Source: Eubacteriales bacterium (GTDB lineage Bacteria > Bacillota > Clostridia > Oscillospirales > CAG-272). From it: a stretch of 36,851 nucleotides of DNA. Made by a program: the position numbers and the translations under genes. The stretch lies in assembly GCA_045539485.1 (NCBI GenBank), contig JAZQFL010000057.1, positions 1 through 36,851 of the forward strand, written 5' to 3'. Shown here piece by piece: positions 352 to 25,200 of this stretch. A model generated the notes under the pieces. The model saw nothing but the letters and a program-made list of their open reading frames with translations. It made no database searches and was not told where the DNA came from. Each line of letters begins with the position of its first letter. Position 1 is the first letter of the stretch.

Positions 352-1620
352 CTATTTTTTAAGATCGCCCACGTAAGCGCGTACGAGCTCAATGCAGCCG
401 CCAACGGGATCGTTGGTGCTGGTGTAGATGTAGAGGTAGTCGTTATGGATAAGCATTCCGGGCCAGTTGCCGAATTTGCCTATCATAGTATTGAAGGGAT
501 CATAGCTTTCTGTCCAGTCCCAAGAATGCGCCTTGGAAATATCAACGCCTTCCTTGGTCATAACTATCTTTGTAACCTTGCACTTGTCGTCGCCGGTGTC
601 AAAGGCAGTGCCGAGAGCATCCTCGTCGGTCTGGAATGCAACTACGATACGTCCGTCGGGAAGCTCGATCCAGAAGGGGGAGCCGCCGCTTGAGGTATTC
701 TCGGGGAAGAAGCATCCGGTAACGCCCTTCCAGTGTACTCCGTCTGCTGAGTAAAGAACATAGGGAAGAAGCGTGCTTCCGCGTGAGGAGTAGAAGCGCT
801 TGGTCTCAACGGTCATAAGATAACCGCCGGTGGAAAGCTTGTCAACGATGGGCATGCCGTTACGGTCGGTCTTTCCCGTATCGTCGGAGGTGTAGTGGGA
901 CTGAACCCACTTCTTTTCGGTCTCATCCCACTCGAAAATATCTGTGGAAGGAATGATCTGCTTGTCGTACACGGTCTTGCCTATAGCAAAGAAGCAGGTA
1001 AGCTTGCCGTTAACGTAGCAAAAATCAGGCTCCCAAAGTCCCCAGGAAACGCCGTCCTTGAGGCCGTTCTGCTGCAGCTCAAAAACTGTGGAGTGGGGGT
1101 AGAAGGTCTCGCAGTTGTCGTCGCTTGCGTGGATACGAATGGAGGAGTAACCCTGGGATGCGTTTCTGTCGTTGCAGCGGTAGGCCATAAGCACCTGACC
1201 GTTTTCAAGCTGGATGATATCCACGTTTGCAAGGGTCTTTGTTTGATCCTCGCCGTAGAAAAGCACCTTGATGGGGCCCCAGTTCTTGCCGTCGTTTTCG
1301 CTGAATACGGCCTTCATACAGCGCTTGCCGCCATCGGTAGAGGGCCAAGCACAGATCATTCTGCCGTCCTGAAGAACGTACATGCGGGAATATGCACTGC
1401 CGTTTCCGCCGTAAGCGGCTACGGTGATGGGGCGCTCGAACTTCAGTCCGTAGTAACCGTCATCGGGCTCCTTGCCGTCGTTATTTTCGGTGGTGTCTGC
1501 AGTATCTGCGGGGTCTGTGGTATCTGTGGTATCCTCGGTAACGGGGGGCTGCTTATCGCAGGAAAAGAGCGCTCCGCAAACGAAGAGGGAAGCAAGCAGG
1601 ATGCAAAGGATTCTTTTCAT
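352..1620 (-). CDS. Secreted lipoprotein with BNR/Asp-box repeats (sialidase-like beta-propeller glycoside hydrolase fold)
   Basis: 422-aa ORF with a GGAG RBS at 1627-1630. Signal peptide plus lipobox: MKRILCILLASLFVCGALFSC. Asp-box-like motifs SENDGKNW, STDGGKRC and SADGVHW. A T/D/P-rich linker follows the lipobox. Confidence 0.6.
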   Translation of the reverse strand: MKRILCILLASLFVCGALFSCDKQPPVTEDTTDTTDPADTADTTENNDGKEPDDGYYGLKFERPITVAAYGGNGSAYSRMYVLQDGRMICAWPSTDGGKRCMKAVFSENDGKNWGPIKVLFYGEDQTKTLANVDIIQLENGQVLMAYRCNDRNASQGYSSIRIHASDDNCETFYPHSTVFELQQNGLKDGVSWGLWEPDFCYVNGKLTCFFAIGKTVYDKQIIPSTDIFEWDETEKKWVQSHYTSDDTGKTDRNGMPIVDKLSTGGYLMTVETKRFYSSRGSTLLPYVLYSADGVHWKGVTGCFFPENTSSGGSPFWIELPDGRIVVAFQTDEDALGTAFDTGDDKCKVTKIVMTKEGVDISKAHSWDWTESYDPFNTMIGKFGNWPGMLIHNDYLYIYTSTNDPVGGCIELVRAYVGDLKK

Positions 1621-1640
1621 AATTAACTCCTTGGGGTAGA

Positions 1641-1669
1641 AACGGGCGTGAAGTTCACGCCCGTTTTTT
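1641..1669. terminator. Intercistronic hairpin plus T-run between the SBP-like gene and the BNR-like gene
   Basis: aacgggcgtg (1641-1650) pairs with cacgcccgtt (1656-1665), followed by tttttt to 1669 on the plus strand. On the minus-strand transcript the tail is only UUUCUACC, so termination is probably partial. Confidence 0.45.
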
Positions 1670-1682
1670 GGGTTTGGATATC

Positions 1683-3179
1683 TTAATACTGGTCCTTCAT
1701 CTTTTCGATGGCGGTGTTAAGAGACTTAACTGCAGCCTGTGCGGTGCTGAGACGCTGCTGAACGGTAGAAGCGAATGCGCCGTACTGACCCTCTTTTACA
1801 TAGCTGTACATAGCGGTGATGAGGTTAGCGATTCTGTAGTAGTGTCCGATATCAACGAACTTGTTGTTGAAGATGATATCAAGGCAGAACTTACTCTCCT
1901 CGTCACGGATCTTCTCGCCTTCAAGAGTCTTTACGTAGTAAGCGGGAACGGTGGTGGTAGAAGAGTAGTATCCCATAAGGTCCATGATAGCGCCGGTGCG
2001 CTCAGCATCCTCCTGAACGTAGGGCATTGCAACGAAGTTTGCAAGACCTGCGGAGAAGGTGCAGTACCAGTTTTCCTGAGCTGTGTCGTACTTGGGGTTG
2101 GGAAGGATACCGTAGTTGGAATCCATATCGCGGAAACGGGAGATCTCGTTGAAGAGAGACATGAAGAACATTGCCTGACCGTTGGAGAACACTGTGGGCC
2201 AGCCCACACCGCCGGTCATGGTCTGGAAGTTGATGCACCAGTCGCTTTGCTCGATCTCGCTGAACTTGTCAACGATAGCGTAAACGCGCTCGTTCTGAAG
2301 GGTGAACTCAACGTATCCGTCCTCGTTTACCTTAGCAACGCGCTCGCCTGCTGCCTGAATGGTAGCGTAAAGCTCGTCGCACCAGGTCATAAGGCCGTAT
2401 CTGTCGTTGGAGTCGAGAACGTCGTCTGCGTTAAGGTCCTCGCTTACCTGAGAAGCAAGGCGGGAGAGCTCGTCAAGAGTCCACTTGCCCTCTTCTACAA
2501 GCTTATAAACGTCGGTGCCGTCGGTAATGTGGGTCTTGTACATGTCTTTGTTGAAGATAACGCAGTACATGTAGTCGTTAACGTGGAGGCTGATATCGCC
2601 GGAGGTGAAGTAGATGGAATTCGCAATTCTTACACCGTCGTTGATGGTCTTGTCCCACCAAGGATTGGTGAGATCGAGGCTATCAACAGACTCCATGTTG
2701 TAAAGATAGCCTGCGGTAACGTAAGGAACGAGAGAGTAGGTGTGGCAAACGGTATAATCGTAAAGTGCCTCATTGCTTATGTACATCTGCTGAATTATCG
2801 CTGCGTTTGTTGCATAGTTGGTGCTGTCGATGTACTGGGTAGCCTCGATGATAACGCCGTTCTTTTCTTCAAGTCTTGCATTTCTGTCGTAAACCGCCTT
2901 ATCAAGCACGGTTCCGTTATCCTCGAACACAAGATCGTGAGGGGGACGGGTGGAACGGCTGACGAGCAGCACCTTGAAGGTGTAATCGCCAAACTTCTTG
3001 TCGATAGCGGAAGGGAGCACCTCGGGAGCGGGTGCATCGGTAACAGGCGCTTCGGTGGTTACGTTCGGGTCATCGGTAACGGCGGGAGTTTTTTCACCGC
3101 AGGAGCCGAAGAGAACAGCTGTACCCAAAAGCATAACGAGAGACAGCGCAAAAGACAAAAATCTGATGCTTCTTTTCAT
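1683..3179 (-). CDS. Solute-binding-protein-like lipoprotein (family-1 SBP fold), paralogue 1
   Basis: 498-aa ORF with a GGAGG RBS at 3185-3189. Lipobox LFGSC, then a T/P/D linker. Motifs shared with the 10027 and 28842 genes: EGKWTLD, YGILPNPK, WWDKTIN, YFTSGDISL. It also has the FNKD...G...EGKWT segment typical of SBP_bac_1-type proteins. Confidence 0.7.
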   Translation of the reverse strand: MKRSIRFLSFALSLVMLLGTAVLFGSCGEKTPAVTDDPNVTTEAPVTDAPAPEVLPSAIDKKFGDYTFKVLLVSRSTRPPHDLVFEDNGTVLDKAVYDRNARLEEKNGVIIEATQYIDSTNYATNAAIIQQMYISNEALYDYTVCHTYSLVPYVTAGYLYNMESVDSLDLTNPWWDKTINDGVRIANSIYFTSGDISLHVNDYMYCVIFNKDMYKTHITDGTDVYKLVEEGKWTLDELSRLASQVSEDLNADDVLDSNDRYGLMTWCDELYATIQAAGERVAKVNEDGYVEFTLQNERVYAIVDKFSEIEQSDWCINFQTMTGGVGWPTVFSNGQAMFFMSLFNEISRFRDMDSNYGILPNPKYDTAQENWYCTFSAGLANFVAMPYVQEDAERTGAIMDLMGYYSSTTTVPAYYVKTLEGEKIRDEESKFCLDIIFNNKFVDIGHYYRIANLITAMYSYVKEGQYGAFASTVQQRLSTAQAAVKSLNTAIEKMKDQY

Positions 3180-17119: not shown

Positions 17120-18061
17120 ATGCAAAAGATAAGTGTTTCCCTTGAGCGTATAATATCGGAGTTTTCCCTTGAGACATTTTACCTTCCCTGTGATGCTAAG
17201 GATATTCAGGTATACTGCAACGCGGTAAACAGACCCGGATTGCAGATAACGGGATATTACGACCACTTCGAAGAGGAAAGAATTCAGATAATCGGACACG
17301 TTGAGCACGATTATCTCGGACATATGAGCGTGGAGGAAAGGACCTTCCGCCTTAACGAGTTTTTTGCGCACAAGCCGGTTGCGGTCGTGGTTTCCACCGA
17401 CCTTGAGATCTTCCCCGAGCTTCTGAATGCGGCAAAGGAATACGGTGTTCCTCTGCTTCGTACATCCACTACAACTACCGCATTCCTTGCGGCTATGATA
17501 GCATTCCTTGACCTTGCGTTAGCCCCCCGCATCACGCGCCACGGAGTTCTCGTTGAGGTATACGGCGAGGGTATTCTTATCCTCGGTGACAGCGGTATCG
17601 GTAAGAGCGAGACCGCTATCGAGCTTGTAAAGCGAGGCCACCGACTAATTGCCGATGATGCGGTTGAAATCAAGCGCGTTTCGGCAAAGACACTTGTCGG
17701 CTCCGCGCCCGAGATCATCCGCCATTACGTAGAGCTCAGAGGTATCGGCATCGTGGACGTGCGCCGTATCTTCGGTATGGGTGCGGTTAAGATGACGGAG
17801 AAGATCGACCTGATAATCAAGTTTGAGCATTGGGATCAGAACAAGATGTACGACCGCTTCGGCCTTGATAACGAAAAGACCGATATCCTCGGCATCAATA
17901 TTCCCACGATCACCATTCCCGTCCGCCCCGGACGTAACCTTGCGGTCATTCTTGAGATAGCTGCAATGAACAACCGCCAGAAAAAGATGGGCTACAATAC
18001 CGCCGAGGAATTCAATAAGCGCCTTATGGGCATTTATGAGGGAAAAGGCGACGATAGATAA
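17120..18061 (+). CDS. hprK: HPr kinase/phosphorylase
   Basis: 313 aa. GVLVEVYGEGILILGDSGIGKSETAIELVKRGHRLIADDAV, plus a full N-terminal domain. Confidence 0.95.
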   Translation: MQKISVSLERIISEFSLETFYLPCDAKDIQVYCNAVNRPGLQITGYYDHFEEERIQIIGHVEHDYLGHMSVEERTFRLNEFFAHKPVAVVVSTDLEIFPELLNAAKEYGVPLLRTSTTTTAFLAAMIAFLDLALAPRITRHGVLVEVYGEGILILGDSGIGKSETAIELVKRGHRLIADDAVEIKRVSAKTLVGSAPEIIRHYVELRGIGIVDVRRIFGMGAVKMTEKIDLIIKFEHWDQNKMYDRFGLDNEKTDILGINIPTITIPVRPGRNLAVILEIAAMNNRQKKMGYNTAEEFNKRLMGIYEGKGDDR

Positions 18062-23267: not shown

Positions 23268-23304
23268 ATATACAACAAATGCGCGCTCAGCTTTGAGCGC
23301 GCAT
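23268..23304 (-). terminator. Hairpin overlapping the peptidase stop codon (moderate terminator)
   Basis: atgcgcgctca (23279-23289) pairs with tgagcgcgcat (23294-23304), with loop gctt. The minus-strand tail is UUGUUGUAUAU. Confidence 0.45.
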
Positions 23305-23760
23305 ATAGATAGCTTCTTTTTTATAGGTAGGGGAAGTACGGCGCAAAACAAACAGAGCGCAACGGCGCAAAAACAGGGAGGCACACCATAGTCTTACGTA
23401 GATCTTGTACCAAATCGGCTTTGAAAAATCAATGTATTTTTCTCCGCGCAATATGCCGTGCACGTAGCCGATCACCGCATCCTTGCGTATTTTTTCCTTT
23501 ACTATCTGGTTGTCGCCGCACATGATCAGAGTGCCGTCCGAATTGCACTTCAGCGCACGGTGCGCGATTATGCCGTGTGCGTTGGAATATACAAGCACGT
23601 CGTAATTTTTCGGCTCTCTCGGAAGGGGCTTTATGCACATTCTGTCGCGCGAATTCGCGATAAGGGGAAGCATGCTCATTCCCTTGCCCTGTACAACGGC
23701 AAAACCGTGTTTTTCAAGCGTTTCTTTGAGCGAGAGCGCCTCTGTGTTTTGATTATTCAT
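23287..23760 (-). CDS. S24/S26-clan Ser/His peptidase (SipW/Sec11-like catalytic boxes) without an N-terminal membrane anchor
   Basis: 157 aa from the ATG at 23760 (the track start at 23763 is a TTG). Boxes GKGMSMLPLI (Ser), GIIAHRALK (His-Arg, as in the VTHRIV box of SipW) and MCGDNQ (GDN). The C-terminal tail IWYKIYVRLWCASLFLRRCALFVLRR is hydrophobic and basic. Confidence 0.65.
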   Translation of the reverse strand: MNNQNTEALSLKETLEKHGFAVVQGKGMSMLPLIANSRDRMCIKPLPREPKNYDVLVYSNAHGIIAHRALKCNSDGTLIMCGDNQIVKEKIRKDAVIGYVHGILRGEKYIDFSKPIWYKIYVRLWCASLFLRRCALFVLRRTSPTYKKEAIYMRAQS

Positions 23761-24019
23761 CAAGCAGACCTGCGGTTCTTATGGCATCGATAAAAGCACG
23801 GATGTCTTTTTCGGCCGTTTCCTTATCCGTTTCGTAAGCATCAAGCATAGCATCGACCATTGCGGCTTCGTCCGTATCGGTCTCAAGCAGCTTCCAAAGA
23901 AATGCGCCCGTGGGATTGAGGCGGATCATGCCCTTGAACTGAATTGCGGCCTCTCCAACGGCGATAACTACGTTCTCGCCCGCGACCTCTCTCATAAGAA
24001 AACCTTTTTTAATCTTCAT
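23753..24019 (-). CDS. PqqD-family protein (RiPP recognition element-like peptide chaperone)
   Basis: 88 aa from the ATG at 24019, after GGAGG (24028-24024). MKIKKGFLMREVAGENVVIAVGEAAIQFKGMIRLNPTGAFLWKLLETDTDEAAMVDAMLDAYETDKETAEKDIRAFIDAIRTAGLLDE. It overlaps the peptidase start by 8 nt. Confidence 0.7.
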   Translation of the reverse strand: MKIKKGFLMREVAGENVVIAVGEAAIQFKGMIRLNPTGAFLWKLLETDTDEAAMVDAMLDAYETDKETAEKDIRAFIDAIRTAGLLDE

Positions 24020-24029
24020 AATTCCTCCG

Positions 24030-25157
24030 TTACGCATCCTCGCGTTCAAAGTGGTATTTTTTAGCGTGGGTACAGATGCTTTGCACTATTCCGATCATCA
24101 TATAGAGGGAAAGCACGGACGAACCGCCGTAGCTGATGAAGGGAAGTGTGATCCCGACAACGGGAAGCATTGCAAGCGCCATTCCCACGTTTTCCGTGAC
24201 TTGCGCAAGCAGCAGTGCGCCGCACCCCACGGCAATATATGCACCGCAGTCCTTGCGGGCGTGGATGGCGATGATAAATATTCTGATAATAAGCACGGCA
24301 AACAGCAAAACAACGACAGCACATCCCACAAAGCCGAATTTTTCGCCTATCATGGAAAGGACGAAGTCGTTATTTGCCATAGGCACATCCTCATAATATC
24401 CGCCGCCGTTAAGACCTGTGCCGAAGATGCCGCCCGCAGTGATGGCACGGCGCGACATAAGCGCCTGCATACCGAAATCCGTGGGGTCAAGCTCCGGGTC
24501 AAAGCCCACAAGTATTCTCATTCGCTGATATTCGCCGAGAAGCGGCCACACGTGAGGAAAGGCAACAACGGCAAGCGTGCCGCCTATTATGTAGTACCAA
24601 AGGCTCAGTCCAGCCGCAAACATCATCGCAAGTGCGATAACTATGTAAACAAGCGAGGTACCGAGGTCGTCCTGCAAAAACACAAGCCCCGCAAGTATAC
24701 CGACGTGCACAAGCAGCCGCAGTACTGATAGGGGGTGGTTTAACTTCGGGCGAAGCACCTCAAGGTGCTTTGCAAACGTAACTATCAAAAACAGCTTCAC
24801 AAACTCGGACGGCTGGATCGTTAGCGGTATACCCGGTATCTGTATCCAGCTCTTGCCGCCGAACATACCCGTGGAACCGATAACGAGCGTAAGCAGCAAT
24901 GCCGCCGCACCGCCGATGAAAAGGGGCAGTGCAAGCTTATCGCAGATATCCTGATAGTCAAGCGTTGCTATCATCAGTGCGATGGCGATGCCGAGCGCCG
25001 TTGCAAACGACTGTACCAGAACACGGCTGACACCGTACACCTCTCTCGCGCCCCAGTGCGTGAGTATTCCGATAAAGGAAAGTGAGAGCACGCATATTAC
25101 GATAATGGGGTCAAGAAGAAGGAGGCGCCGGCGTATGGAATTTAGAAACGAACTCAT
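24030..25157 (-). CDS. FtsW/RodA/SpoVE-family (SEDS) peptidoglycan glycosyltransferase
   Basis: The track start at 25166 is a GTG. The ATG at 25157 lies 8 nt after GGAGG (25170-25166). SEDS motifs VPMANNDFVLSMIGEKFGFVG and LPVVGITLPFISYGGSSVL, with about 10 TM helices. Confidence 0.9.
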   Translation of the reverse strand: MSSFLNSIRRRLLLLDPIIVICVLSLSFIGILTHWGAREVYGVSRVLVQSFATALGIAIALMIATLDYQDICDKLALPLFIGGAAALLLTLVIGSTGMFGGKSWIQIPGIPLTIQPSEFVKLFLIVTFAKHLEVLRPKLNHPLSVLRLLVHVGILAGLVFLQDDLGTSLVYIVIALAMMFAAGLSLWYYIIGGTLAVVAFPHVWPLLGEYQRMRILVGFDPELDPTDFGMQALMSRRAITAGGIFGTGLNGGGYYEDVPMANNDFVLSMIGEKFGFVGCAVVVLLFAVLIIRIFIIAIHARKDCGAYIAVGCGALLLAQVTENVGMALAMLPVVGITLPFISYGGSSVLSLYMMIGIVQSICTHAKKYHFEREDA

Positions 25158-25200
25158 GCGCGGCACCTCCGTAAATTTTTAGTTATAGATCCGTTAAGAA

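Follow-up and report, generated by a model that had tools for sequence, protein, structure and literature searches.

A Clostridial RRE–peptidase pair as a likely recognition and cleavage module of a dispersed pathway of the linear polyphosphorylated peptide type

The linear polyphosphorylated peptide (LPP) pathway, a pathway for peptides made by ribosomes and modified after translation (RiPPs), was described in Paenibacillus alginolyticus DSM5050 by Popov et al. (Nat Commun 2026; PMC13381572). Its core genes encode the precursor LppA, the HprK-like kinase LppK, the RiPP recognition element (RRE) LppB, the SpI-like peptidase LppS, the MsbA-like exporter LppD and the nucleoside triphosphate (NTP) transferase LppN. 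Here we analyzed a 36,851-nt stretch of DNA from a Eubacteriales bacterium (contig JAZQFL010000057.1 of assembly GCA_045539485.1; the window), in which two overlapping minus-strand genes encode an 88-residue RRE and a 157-residue SipW-like peptidase. The window is one entire contig (C57) of a metagenome-assembled genome (MAG) of 1.9 Mb in 267 contigs that is 72% complete. From protein families, conserved residues, neighbourhoods of related pairs and the remaining contigs of the same genome, we consider it likely, with good confidence, that the pair, as the counterpart of LppB/LppS, carries out recognition and cleavage in an LPP-type RiPP pathway with genes dispersed over the genome.

In the published system, the LppA leader has the consensus YxxPxVLxHQxIxFETxxS, LppK adds up to four phosphates to Ser3 of the core, and LppS cleaves the leader after T-1, solely in the presence of LppB. 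LppS is poorly soluble and has no partner-independent activity, and its S29A, H68A and D93A mutants were inactive. In the crystal structure of LppB with the leader (9x8z), D70 holds Y-16 in a pocket of which Y60 is part, P-13 lies between V35 and F74, and N33 fixes the kink. LppN had no visible effect, and the authors surmise that a partner is missing, one whose gene lies beyond the core cluster. Their collection comprises 199 SipW-like peptidase/RRE-module proteins, and their table contains a few Clostridial SpI–RRE pairs from Ruminococcus, Anaerocolumna, Desulfosporosinus and Dehalobacter, which fall into clusters 4 and 9 of the sequence similarity network; the words 'Clostridia', 'orphan' and 'dispersed' do not occur in the main text (PMC13381572). 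Among lasso peptides, HprK-like kinases phosphorylate a C-terminal Ser of the paeninodin type, and the nucleotidyltransferase PsmN is associated with the glycosylation of pseudomycoidin (PMC7533575).

The RRE of the window passed the gathering score of the Pfam PqqD family (PF05402; E = 2.5e-18; score 66.6 bits, cut-off 23.4), and the NCBIfam models lasso-PqqD, ScmD and PqqD all matched it below their cut-offs (ScmD, E = 1.2e-5). In the PDB it matched the lasso B1 protein TbiB1 (5v1u; E = 2e-5) and LppB (9x8z_B; E = 3e-4). Its residues N35, Y62, D72 and F76 align to the leader-binding residues N33, Y60, D70 and F74 of LppB (numbering according to the supplement of the LPP paper), and these four residues are invariant across 31 Clostridial RREs (alignment A4).

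The peptidase contains the motifs GMSMLP, IAHRAL and CGDN. Ten of its residues, G27, S29, M30, P32, H67, R68, C81, G82, D83 and E89, are invariant in a 12-sequence alignment (A1); in a 103-sequence alignment, G27, S29, M30, P32, R68, G82 and D83 remain invariant and H67 and E89 are retained in at least 90%. Of 31 candidates from a word-based search, 19 were relatives, and the A1 profile, searched against 1.84 billion representatives clustered at 50% identity, hit 11,811 of them at E ≤ 1e-3, 3,726 at E ≤ 1e-10 and 261 at E ≤ 1e-30. Against PDB sequences, the best matches of this profile were SEC11A and SEC11C (E = 0.098–0.48), with the SM, HR and GD(N) boxes aligned and E89 lying opposite the second Asp of the SEC11A VDD. 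Three of the five scanned family members or fusions were matched by TIGR02228 and two of those three by the SipW model NF046067 (E = 2e-5 to 3e-6), all below the cut-off (24–27 bits against 51.85), while PF00717 (Peptidase_S24; cut-off 23.3) was passed by P0099 (27.7) and P0134 (24.3), P0085 (20.6) staying below it. An AlphaFold2 model built from 103 sequences (mean pLDDT 94, pTM 0.86) has an amphipathic N-terminal helix (residues 4–18), a beta core and three C-terminal helices (residues 116–156). Foldseek ranked SipA, LexA, SEC11C/A, SpsB and UmuD' at the top of its PDB matches to this model (E = 2.6e-3 and weaker, probability 1.00, TM-score about 0.45–0.5), and the predicted structure has the S24/S26 fold.

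No transmembrane helix was predicted in the peptidase; the highest 19-residue Kyte-Doolittle mean was 1.36 (residues 120–138), and the N-terminal maximum was 0.81. Since the protein lacks the N-terminal membrane anchor of a secretory signal peptidase I, it should be cytosolic. It is a Ser/His enzyme, soluble and of the S26B type, rather than a secretory signal peptidase. A preliminary description of this DNA, made from the letters alone, had called the two products a PqqD-like RRE and a Ser/His peptidase of the SipW/Sec11 type, and had judged the latter unlikely to serve secretion for want of an N-terminal anchor. The PF05402 match, the family-wide conservation of the motifs and their alignment to SEC11A/C, and the hydropathy profile all bear this out, and the objection that the protein might lack a peptidase fold, raised in the same description, is answered by the predicted structure.

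Related pairs elsewhere were collected by a one-genome-per-species scan, which gave 168 peptidase relatives; the 80 best were retained. These 80 loci belong to Clostridia or Bacillota and come from both MAGs and isolates, mostly of gut or rumen. Together with the window they make 81 places, over which partners were counted with hidden Markov models (HMMs) built from the recurrent neighbours; the counts are lower bounds, as contig ends cut many loci. The RRE is directly adjacent to the peptidase in 67 of the 81 places. A 234-residue, HprK-like P-loop kinase lies within 10 kb in 53 places, in 34 of these directly upstream on the same strand; it has a Walker A motif SGTGKST and no Pfam match, and it weakly resembles ScmC (TIGR04249; E = 7e-8) and HprK_rel_A/B. 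An MsbA-like exporter of ~550 residues with ABC_membrane and ABC_tran domains adjoins in 25 places, a PF14907 (NTP_transf_5) protein occurs within 3.5 kb in 28, and a precursor-like open reading frame (ORF) was found within 10 kb of the peptidase in 22 (refined HMM). All five parts stand together in 16 of the 81 places. Bare trios of kinase, RRE and peptidase, typically within his or pyr operons, make up another 27, and the RRE and peptidase stand alone in 12, including the window and five loci of its clade (L001–L005), the six whose flanks were individually inspected; the remaining architectures are mixed. Moreover, the parts are found fused to each other: RRE to peptidase in P0155, kinase to peptidase in P0046 and P0074, and peptidase to PF14907 in P0087, P0099 and P0125. 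Other flanks vary and include Ig-repeat surface proteins, an ECF sigma factor with an M23 peptidase, BrkB, a GH2 glycosidase and S-layer proteins. In such a cross-genome search for co-occurring genes, which the preliminary description had proposed, a kinase, an ABC exporter, a PF14907 protein and a family of YxxP-leader precursors recur beside the pair. Among the listed matches of a literature search on PF14907/NTP_transf_5 was an unrelated paper on phosphonates.

Two features of the trios are recorded here as observations in their own right. A 219-residue protein without a Pfam or NCBIfam family (L016, 8206–8865; equivalent in 12 loci) is encoded just upstream of the kinase in the his/pyr trios, and an HD-domain protein and a Trp-repressor-like protein often follow downstream.

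The precursor family emerged from clustering all unassigned ORFs of 18–110 residues around the cassettes. One family of small ORFs is present in 18 loci, usually just upstream of the kinase and mostly with clear Shine-Dalgarno-like sequences. Its N-terminus follows the pattern M-K-K-x-Y-x-x-P-E-[IV]-E-[IV]-x-x-F-x-T-E-D-I-I-T-x-S, and its C-terminal portion is acidic and varies in sequence, with Trp plus one or two residues as a frequent ending. Among 25 precursors, relatives from other genomes included, Y and P are the sole invariant positions. Small ORFs immediately upstream of the trio kinases gave no conserved candidate except in L012, and the seemingly conserved 'peptides' upstream of trio kinases proved to be off-frame readings of the neighbouring 219-residue gene. 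The genome of L016 (G005; 1.7 Mb) carries its kinase–RRE–peptidase trio inside the his operon and six precursor-like ORFs with YxxP leaders on six contigs, including the loci L084, L089, L092 and L093. In a hybrid cluster at L048 (6144–13490), a kinase, two radical SAM genes, the RRE and peptidase, an ABC exporter and a PF14907 gene are accompanied by a precursor with the same Y-x-x-P-E-L-E leader and a Cys-rich core.

In the genome of the window, the precursor HMM has a single significant match (E = 3.1e-5), a 48-residue ORF on contig C143 (227–373, minus strand) with AGGAGG upstream and the sequence MKMNNNNKKAEYLRPEVEIVVFQTAEVLTGNGLSAFNVESSFNNWLLG. Precursors of its relatives keep the core NGLSAFN[VI]ES...W[LI]. 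The leader motif Y..PE[IVL][EDT][IVY]..[FLI] has a single match among 3.0 million six-frame residues, in this same ORF, with 0.18 occurrences expected from composition; the pattern was written after the family had been seen, which makes this count a check of consistency rather than an independent test. A complex prediction of RRE, peptidase and C143 precursor reached a score of 0.75, against 0.65 for a control with the peptidase replaced, and counts neither for nor against the pathway. This YxxP-leader ORF, which has orthologues in related genomes, supports the earlier suggestion of a substrate for the pair that is encoded elsewhere. The C143 ORF (L094) lies directly downstream of a gene for an 857-residue secreted repeat protein without a Pfam family (388–2961, minus strand), and the orthologous precursor of L085 likewise follows a large surface-protein-like gene.

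The YxxP motif of this leader is also of the lasso type, and the best matches of the RRE are lasso B1 proteins and lasso PqqD models, which would fit a lasso-peptide pathway in which the RRE serves as B1 and the cyclase and B2 protease are encoded elsewhere. A cut of the C143 precursor after T-G-N would even give a core that starts with G and has E at position 8. However, Transglut_core3 (PF13471), the B2 domain, was found in none of the four genomes searched, the source genome (72% complete) included, and the Asn_synthase (PF00733) matches were marginal, covering 27–54 residues. No cyclase or B2 protease was seen among the Pfam-scanned neighbour families, and the cleaving enzyme that is linked to the RRE, in P0155 by fusion, is a Ser/His peptidase. 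We rejected the lasso assignment because neither B2 nor a cyclase was found, and regard it as extremely improbable.

The partners of the LPP-type pathway are present in the genome of the window on other contigs, the exporter as a tentative candidate. This genome has one PqqD gene, that of the window, and one peptidase of the family, a second match being marginal (E = 0.0023). A kinase of the cassette type is encoded on C23 (44–742, minus strand; HMM E = 2.5e-79). There are two PF14907 proteins, of which the one on C243 (4353–5504, minus strand) is of the cassette type (E = 4.3e-69) and the copy on C54 reaches merely 2.7e-7. The C243 gene belongs to a minus-strand row (L096, 388–7240) that encodes a GHMP kinase, a PF00483 protein, the PF14907 protein, a 662-residue protein without a family and a 609-residue ABC ATPase. 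The HPr kinase/phosphorylase of the window, 5 kb off the pair, was considered as the pathway kinase and discarded, since it is a full-length HPr enzyme and a separate cassette kinase exists on C23; its proximity to the pair seems coincidental and could mislead annotation.

The dispersal extends to the relatives of this genome. The peptidase was found in 16 of 31 related genomes, the source genome included, with 8/8 in the same genus, 12/18 in the same family and a patchy distribution beyond the family. In five same-genus genomes, the kinase and the PF14907 protein are present in all five and the precursor in four (E ≤ 0.01). In G008 and G013 every partner lies on contigs other than that of the peptidase; in G011 (97% complete) this holds for the kinase and PF14907 genes, whereas the precursor shares the contig of the peptidase at a distance of 50 kb. 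To judge from their identical contig numbers and coordinates, these three are the same genomes as G001, G002 and G004, which contain L001, L003 and L005, and do not count as extra genomes. The core genes, which in the LPP pathway make up one biosynthetic gene cluster (BGC), are not clustered here or in the same-genus genomes. Two same-genus genomes hold a second, compact PF14907–kinase–peptidase row in addition to the rodA-linked copy (G007:C57:1672-4008 and G009:C13:40025-42319), and one of these second-row peptidase frames contains a TGA.

Around the pair itself, the HMMs for the kinase, the ABC exporter and the PF14907 protein had no match in the 13 kb that the window covers on one side or in the 23 kb on the other, the precursor HMM had none in the entire window, and neither the surroundings of the pair nor most related loci showed a radical SAM gene. 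The preliminary description had likewise reported no maturase, exporter or precursor nearby, and the partner HMMs, empty within 10 kb, agree. This isolation, together with the existence of full five-part clusters elsewhere (16/81), would be expected if the pair were a functionless remnant of a broken-up LPP-type cluster, which we consider very unlikely. Neither ORF is broken, and the catalytic and leader-binding residues are all retained. Against L001 and L002, respectively, dN/dS is 0.15 and 0.13 (peptidase) and 0.08 and 0.06 (RRE); L003–L005 were left out because their comparisons are saturated, with a mis-set peptidase start for L004 in addition. The gene order is kept in L001–L005, the peptidase occurs in all eight same-genus genomes, and the partner genes, tentatively also that of the exporter, and the precursor are present in the source genome. 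The preliminary description had envisaged that homologous pairs might always sit in canonical RiPP clusters and that this copy would then be a decayed fragment: the first part stands insofar as pairs are often clustered, and the second does not, given the intact genes, the purifying selection and the partners elsewhere in the genome. In this view the system is a dispersed, divergent variant of LPP, and the pair is no orphan curiosity, nor a fragment in decay.

By analogy with the LPP enzymes, the following course of events can be proposed. The RRE would bind Y12-x-x-P15 in the leader of small precursors, for which the C143 ORF is the candidate, and would present the leader–core junction to the cytosolic peptidase. 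The peptidase would then remove the leader with S29 as the nucleophile, H67 as the base and, most likely, E89 as the acid. Before this cleavage, the C23 kinase probably phosphorylates a core Ser of C143-type precursors, and the C243 operon probably accounts for the attachment of a further group and for export of the product. Two cut sites are candidates from the precursor sequence. A cut after F-Q-T, which corresponds to F-E-T of LppA and lies three residues nearer to the Tyr, would give a core beginning AEVLTGNGLS..., and a cut after the second conserved Thr (V-L-T) would give GNGLSAF.... Since the GHMP kinase and the PF00483 enzyme are encoded upstream of PF14907, they may be the 'missing partner' that provides an activated sugar to an LppN-type enzyme, which suggests a source for the missing co-substrate of LppN that the authors had asked about.

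Several points weigh against the assignment to an LPP-type pathway as follows: First, the RRE matches the lasso protein TbiB1 better than LppB (2e-5 versus 3e-4). Second, the peptidase of the window matched nothing in Pfam and NCBIfam even at E = 10, TIGR02228, NF046067 and PF00717/PF10502 included, and the PDB sequence matches of its profile are weak (E about 0.1). Third, the Clostridial pairs in the table of the LPP study were scored as 'RRE others' with an LPP RRE count of 0 and the precursor not determined, so that the Clostridial subfamily was not counted as LPP by the authors (PMC13381572). Fourth, the distance from Y to F-x-T is 10–12 residues in the Clostridial leader versus 13–15 in LppA, and the Clostridial leader has an extra conserved E-D-I-I-T-x-S stretch with a second T-x-[S/N]. 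The cleavage site is ambiguous because of these two differences, and a cut after V-L-T would place Ser at core position 2 in most family members and Asn in the clade of the window. Fifth, the ABC protein on C243, 2 kb from the PF14907 gene, matches ABC_tran and not the Pfam ABC_membrane domain, and is the 14th-best match of the genome to the exporter HMM. At last, the MAG is 72% complete and in 267 pieces, so that distances can be read within single contigs alone, and RRE-dependent cleavage, phosphorylation, export and the cut residue are all argued from LppA, LppK, LppB, LppS, LppD and LppN.

The positions of the pair, of its neighbours and of the two sugar-related genes on C243 are given in Table 1. 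GGAGG stands 7 nt ahead of the RRE ATG. The peptidase is counted as 157 residues from an ATG that sits within the final RRE codons; an alternative TTG start at 23763 would make it 158 residues. The two ORFs lie on the minus strand at the place given in the preliminary description, which had called them translationally coupled; such coupling is plausible because the 8-nt overlap places the peptidase ATG inside the RRE gene. The stop codon of the RodA/FtsW gene precedes the RRE start by 10 nt, for which reason co-transcription is likely. The terminator-like hairpin overlaps the 3' end of the peptidase ORF, and the start of the A2M-like gene lies 83 nt beyond the end of the peptidase gene; this hairpin, found by a consensus scan, suggests that the transcription unit ends before the A2M-like gene. 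The A2M-like lipoprotein had no NCBIfam match.

Table 1 Positions of the RRE–peptidase pair, its neighbours in the window and two genes on contig C243
Feature	Position	Strand	Basis or remark
LppB-like RRE, PqqD family, 88 residues	23753..24019	-	Pfam PF05402
LppS-like soluble SipW/Sec11-type leader peptidase, 157 residues	23287..23760	-	S29, H67, D83, E89
RRE stop/peptidase start overlap, 8 nt (ATGAATAA)	23753..23760	-	Direct reading
Terminator-like hairpin: 11-bp stem, 7 GC pairs, then T-rich tail	23279..23304	-	Consensus scan only
RodA/FtsW-family gene, directly upstream of RRE	24030..25166	-	PF01098, E = 2.9e-74
A2M-like lipoprotein, 1696 residues	18113-23203	-	Big_5, A2M bait-region (A2M_BRD), MG2 and A2M domains
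Bona fide HPr kinase/phosphorylase	17120-18061	+	TIGR00679, E = 1.5e-109; Hpr_kinase_N and Hpr_kinase_C domains
GHMP-family sugar kinase	C243 6260-7240	-	Directly upstream of the gene in the next row
Sugar-1-phosphate nucleotidyltransferase, PF00483	C243 5526-6290	-	Directly upstream of PF14907 gene

This neighbourhood bears on a further proposal of the preliminary description, namely that the RRE has taken on the delivery of an envelope protein encoded nearby to the peptidase; in the window this would be the A2M-like lipoprotein or RodA. The location of the pair between rodA/ftsW and the A2M-like gene, with an order conserved in five related loci, would suit such a role, as would the short distance between the RodA stop and the RRE start. 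The order of rodA, RRE and peptidase recurs in L001–L005, and the A2M-like gene is directly downstream of the pair in L003–L005, the contigs of L001 and L002 ending before a full copy. Outside this clade, by contrast, the neighbours of 75 loci are unrelated (his and pyr operons, M23 peptidases, S-layer proteins), and the partners that do recur are the kinase, the ABC exporter, the PF14907 protein and the precursor. Furthermore, the hairpin separates the peptidase from the A2M-like gene, and the RRE keeps its YxxP-binding residues while the sole YxxPE-type leader in the genome is that of the C143 ORF. Envelope delivery is not supported, and we give it very little credence. Because the rodA/A2M location is conserved in the clade and not across the family, it was treated as context, and the RodA/FtsW gene is outside the LPP-type pathway.

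The basic mechanism has been known since 2026, when the LPP pathway was described; the assignment of the pair to this pathway resolves the puzzle of an RRE and a peptidase with nothing to work on. What is new is that the Clostridial 'RRE others' subfamily has the same set of partners and its own family of YxxP-leader precursors, as well as the size of this subfamily, with 3,726 clusters at E ≤ 1e-10, and its fully dispersed organisation. The SipW-like peptidase/RRE module extends well beyond the 199 proteins collected by the authors, with 11,811 clusters at 50% identity (E ≤ 1e-3), many of them belonging to Clostridia of gut and rumen. A pathway whose parts can all lie apart in the genome escapes cluster-based genome mining, which will detect neither the pair nor its precursors. 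Tentatively, and with clearly less confidence than the assignment to the LPP type, the pathway may run in this gut Clostridial lineage as a dispersed, trans-acting system, in which a single RRE–peptidase hub in a proS–rodA housekeeping operon would serve several scattered precursors, in the way that many scattered prochlorosin precursors share a single lanthipeptide synthetase, the conserved core and the large subfamily then pointing to a widespread, unrecognised class of housekeeping-linked peptides in gut anaerobes. If so, the kinase and the sugar-activating/PF14907/ABC operon would act from further loci, and the peptides would perhaps serve signalling or the cell envelope rather than belong to a sporadic cluster of the antibiotic type.

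Compared with known systems, the pair is closest in its features to LPP. Both have a discrete PqqD-type RRE beside a SipW-like peptidase that has no transmembrane helix and a Ser/His/acid active site, a YxxP leader and a partner set of HprK-like kinase, PF14907-type NTP transferase and MsbA-like exporter, the exporter being a tentative assignment in this genome; both lack a lasso cyclase, and the RRE residues that hold YxxP are conserved. Compared by eye with LppS, S29 corresponds to S29, H67 to H68 and E89 to D93, the acid lying six residues past GD in both, although it is Glu in the peptidase of the window. Unlike in LPP, the parts of the system are found at no fewer than four unlinked loci, several precursor genes can be scattered (G005), the RRE matches LppB at merely E = 3e-4, and many Clostridial relatives are bare trios in his/pyr operons (27/81). 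The lasso B1 and B2 proteins (TbiB1, 5v1u; paeninodin and pseudomycoidin clusters) share the RRE fold, a [Y/W]xxP leader and a separate protease, and the paeninodin and pseudomycoidin clusters also have an HprK-like kinase and a nucleotidyltransferase as tailoring genes (PMC7533575 and PMC13381572). In contrast, B2 is a transglutaminase-like Cys protease, whereas the enzyme here is a Ser/His, S26-like one, and no macrolactam cyclase was found in this system. With the signal peptidases I of the SipW, Sec11 and archaeal type (MEROPS S26B; TIGR02228, NF046067), the peptidase shares SM.P, HR, GD with an acid six residues on, and the fold; it differs in having no N-terminal anchor, in scoring below all curated cut-offs and, by analogy with LppS, in its probable dependence on an RRE. 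SynChlorMet cassettes, which combine the HprK-like ScmC, the PqqD protein ScmD and radical SAM enzymes, resemble the system in that the partner kinase is weakly similar to ScmC and the RRE to ScmD (1.2e-5), and L048 pairs the same leader with two radical SAM genes, whereas no radical SAM gene lies near the pair of the window or at most related loci.

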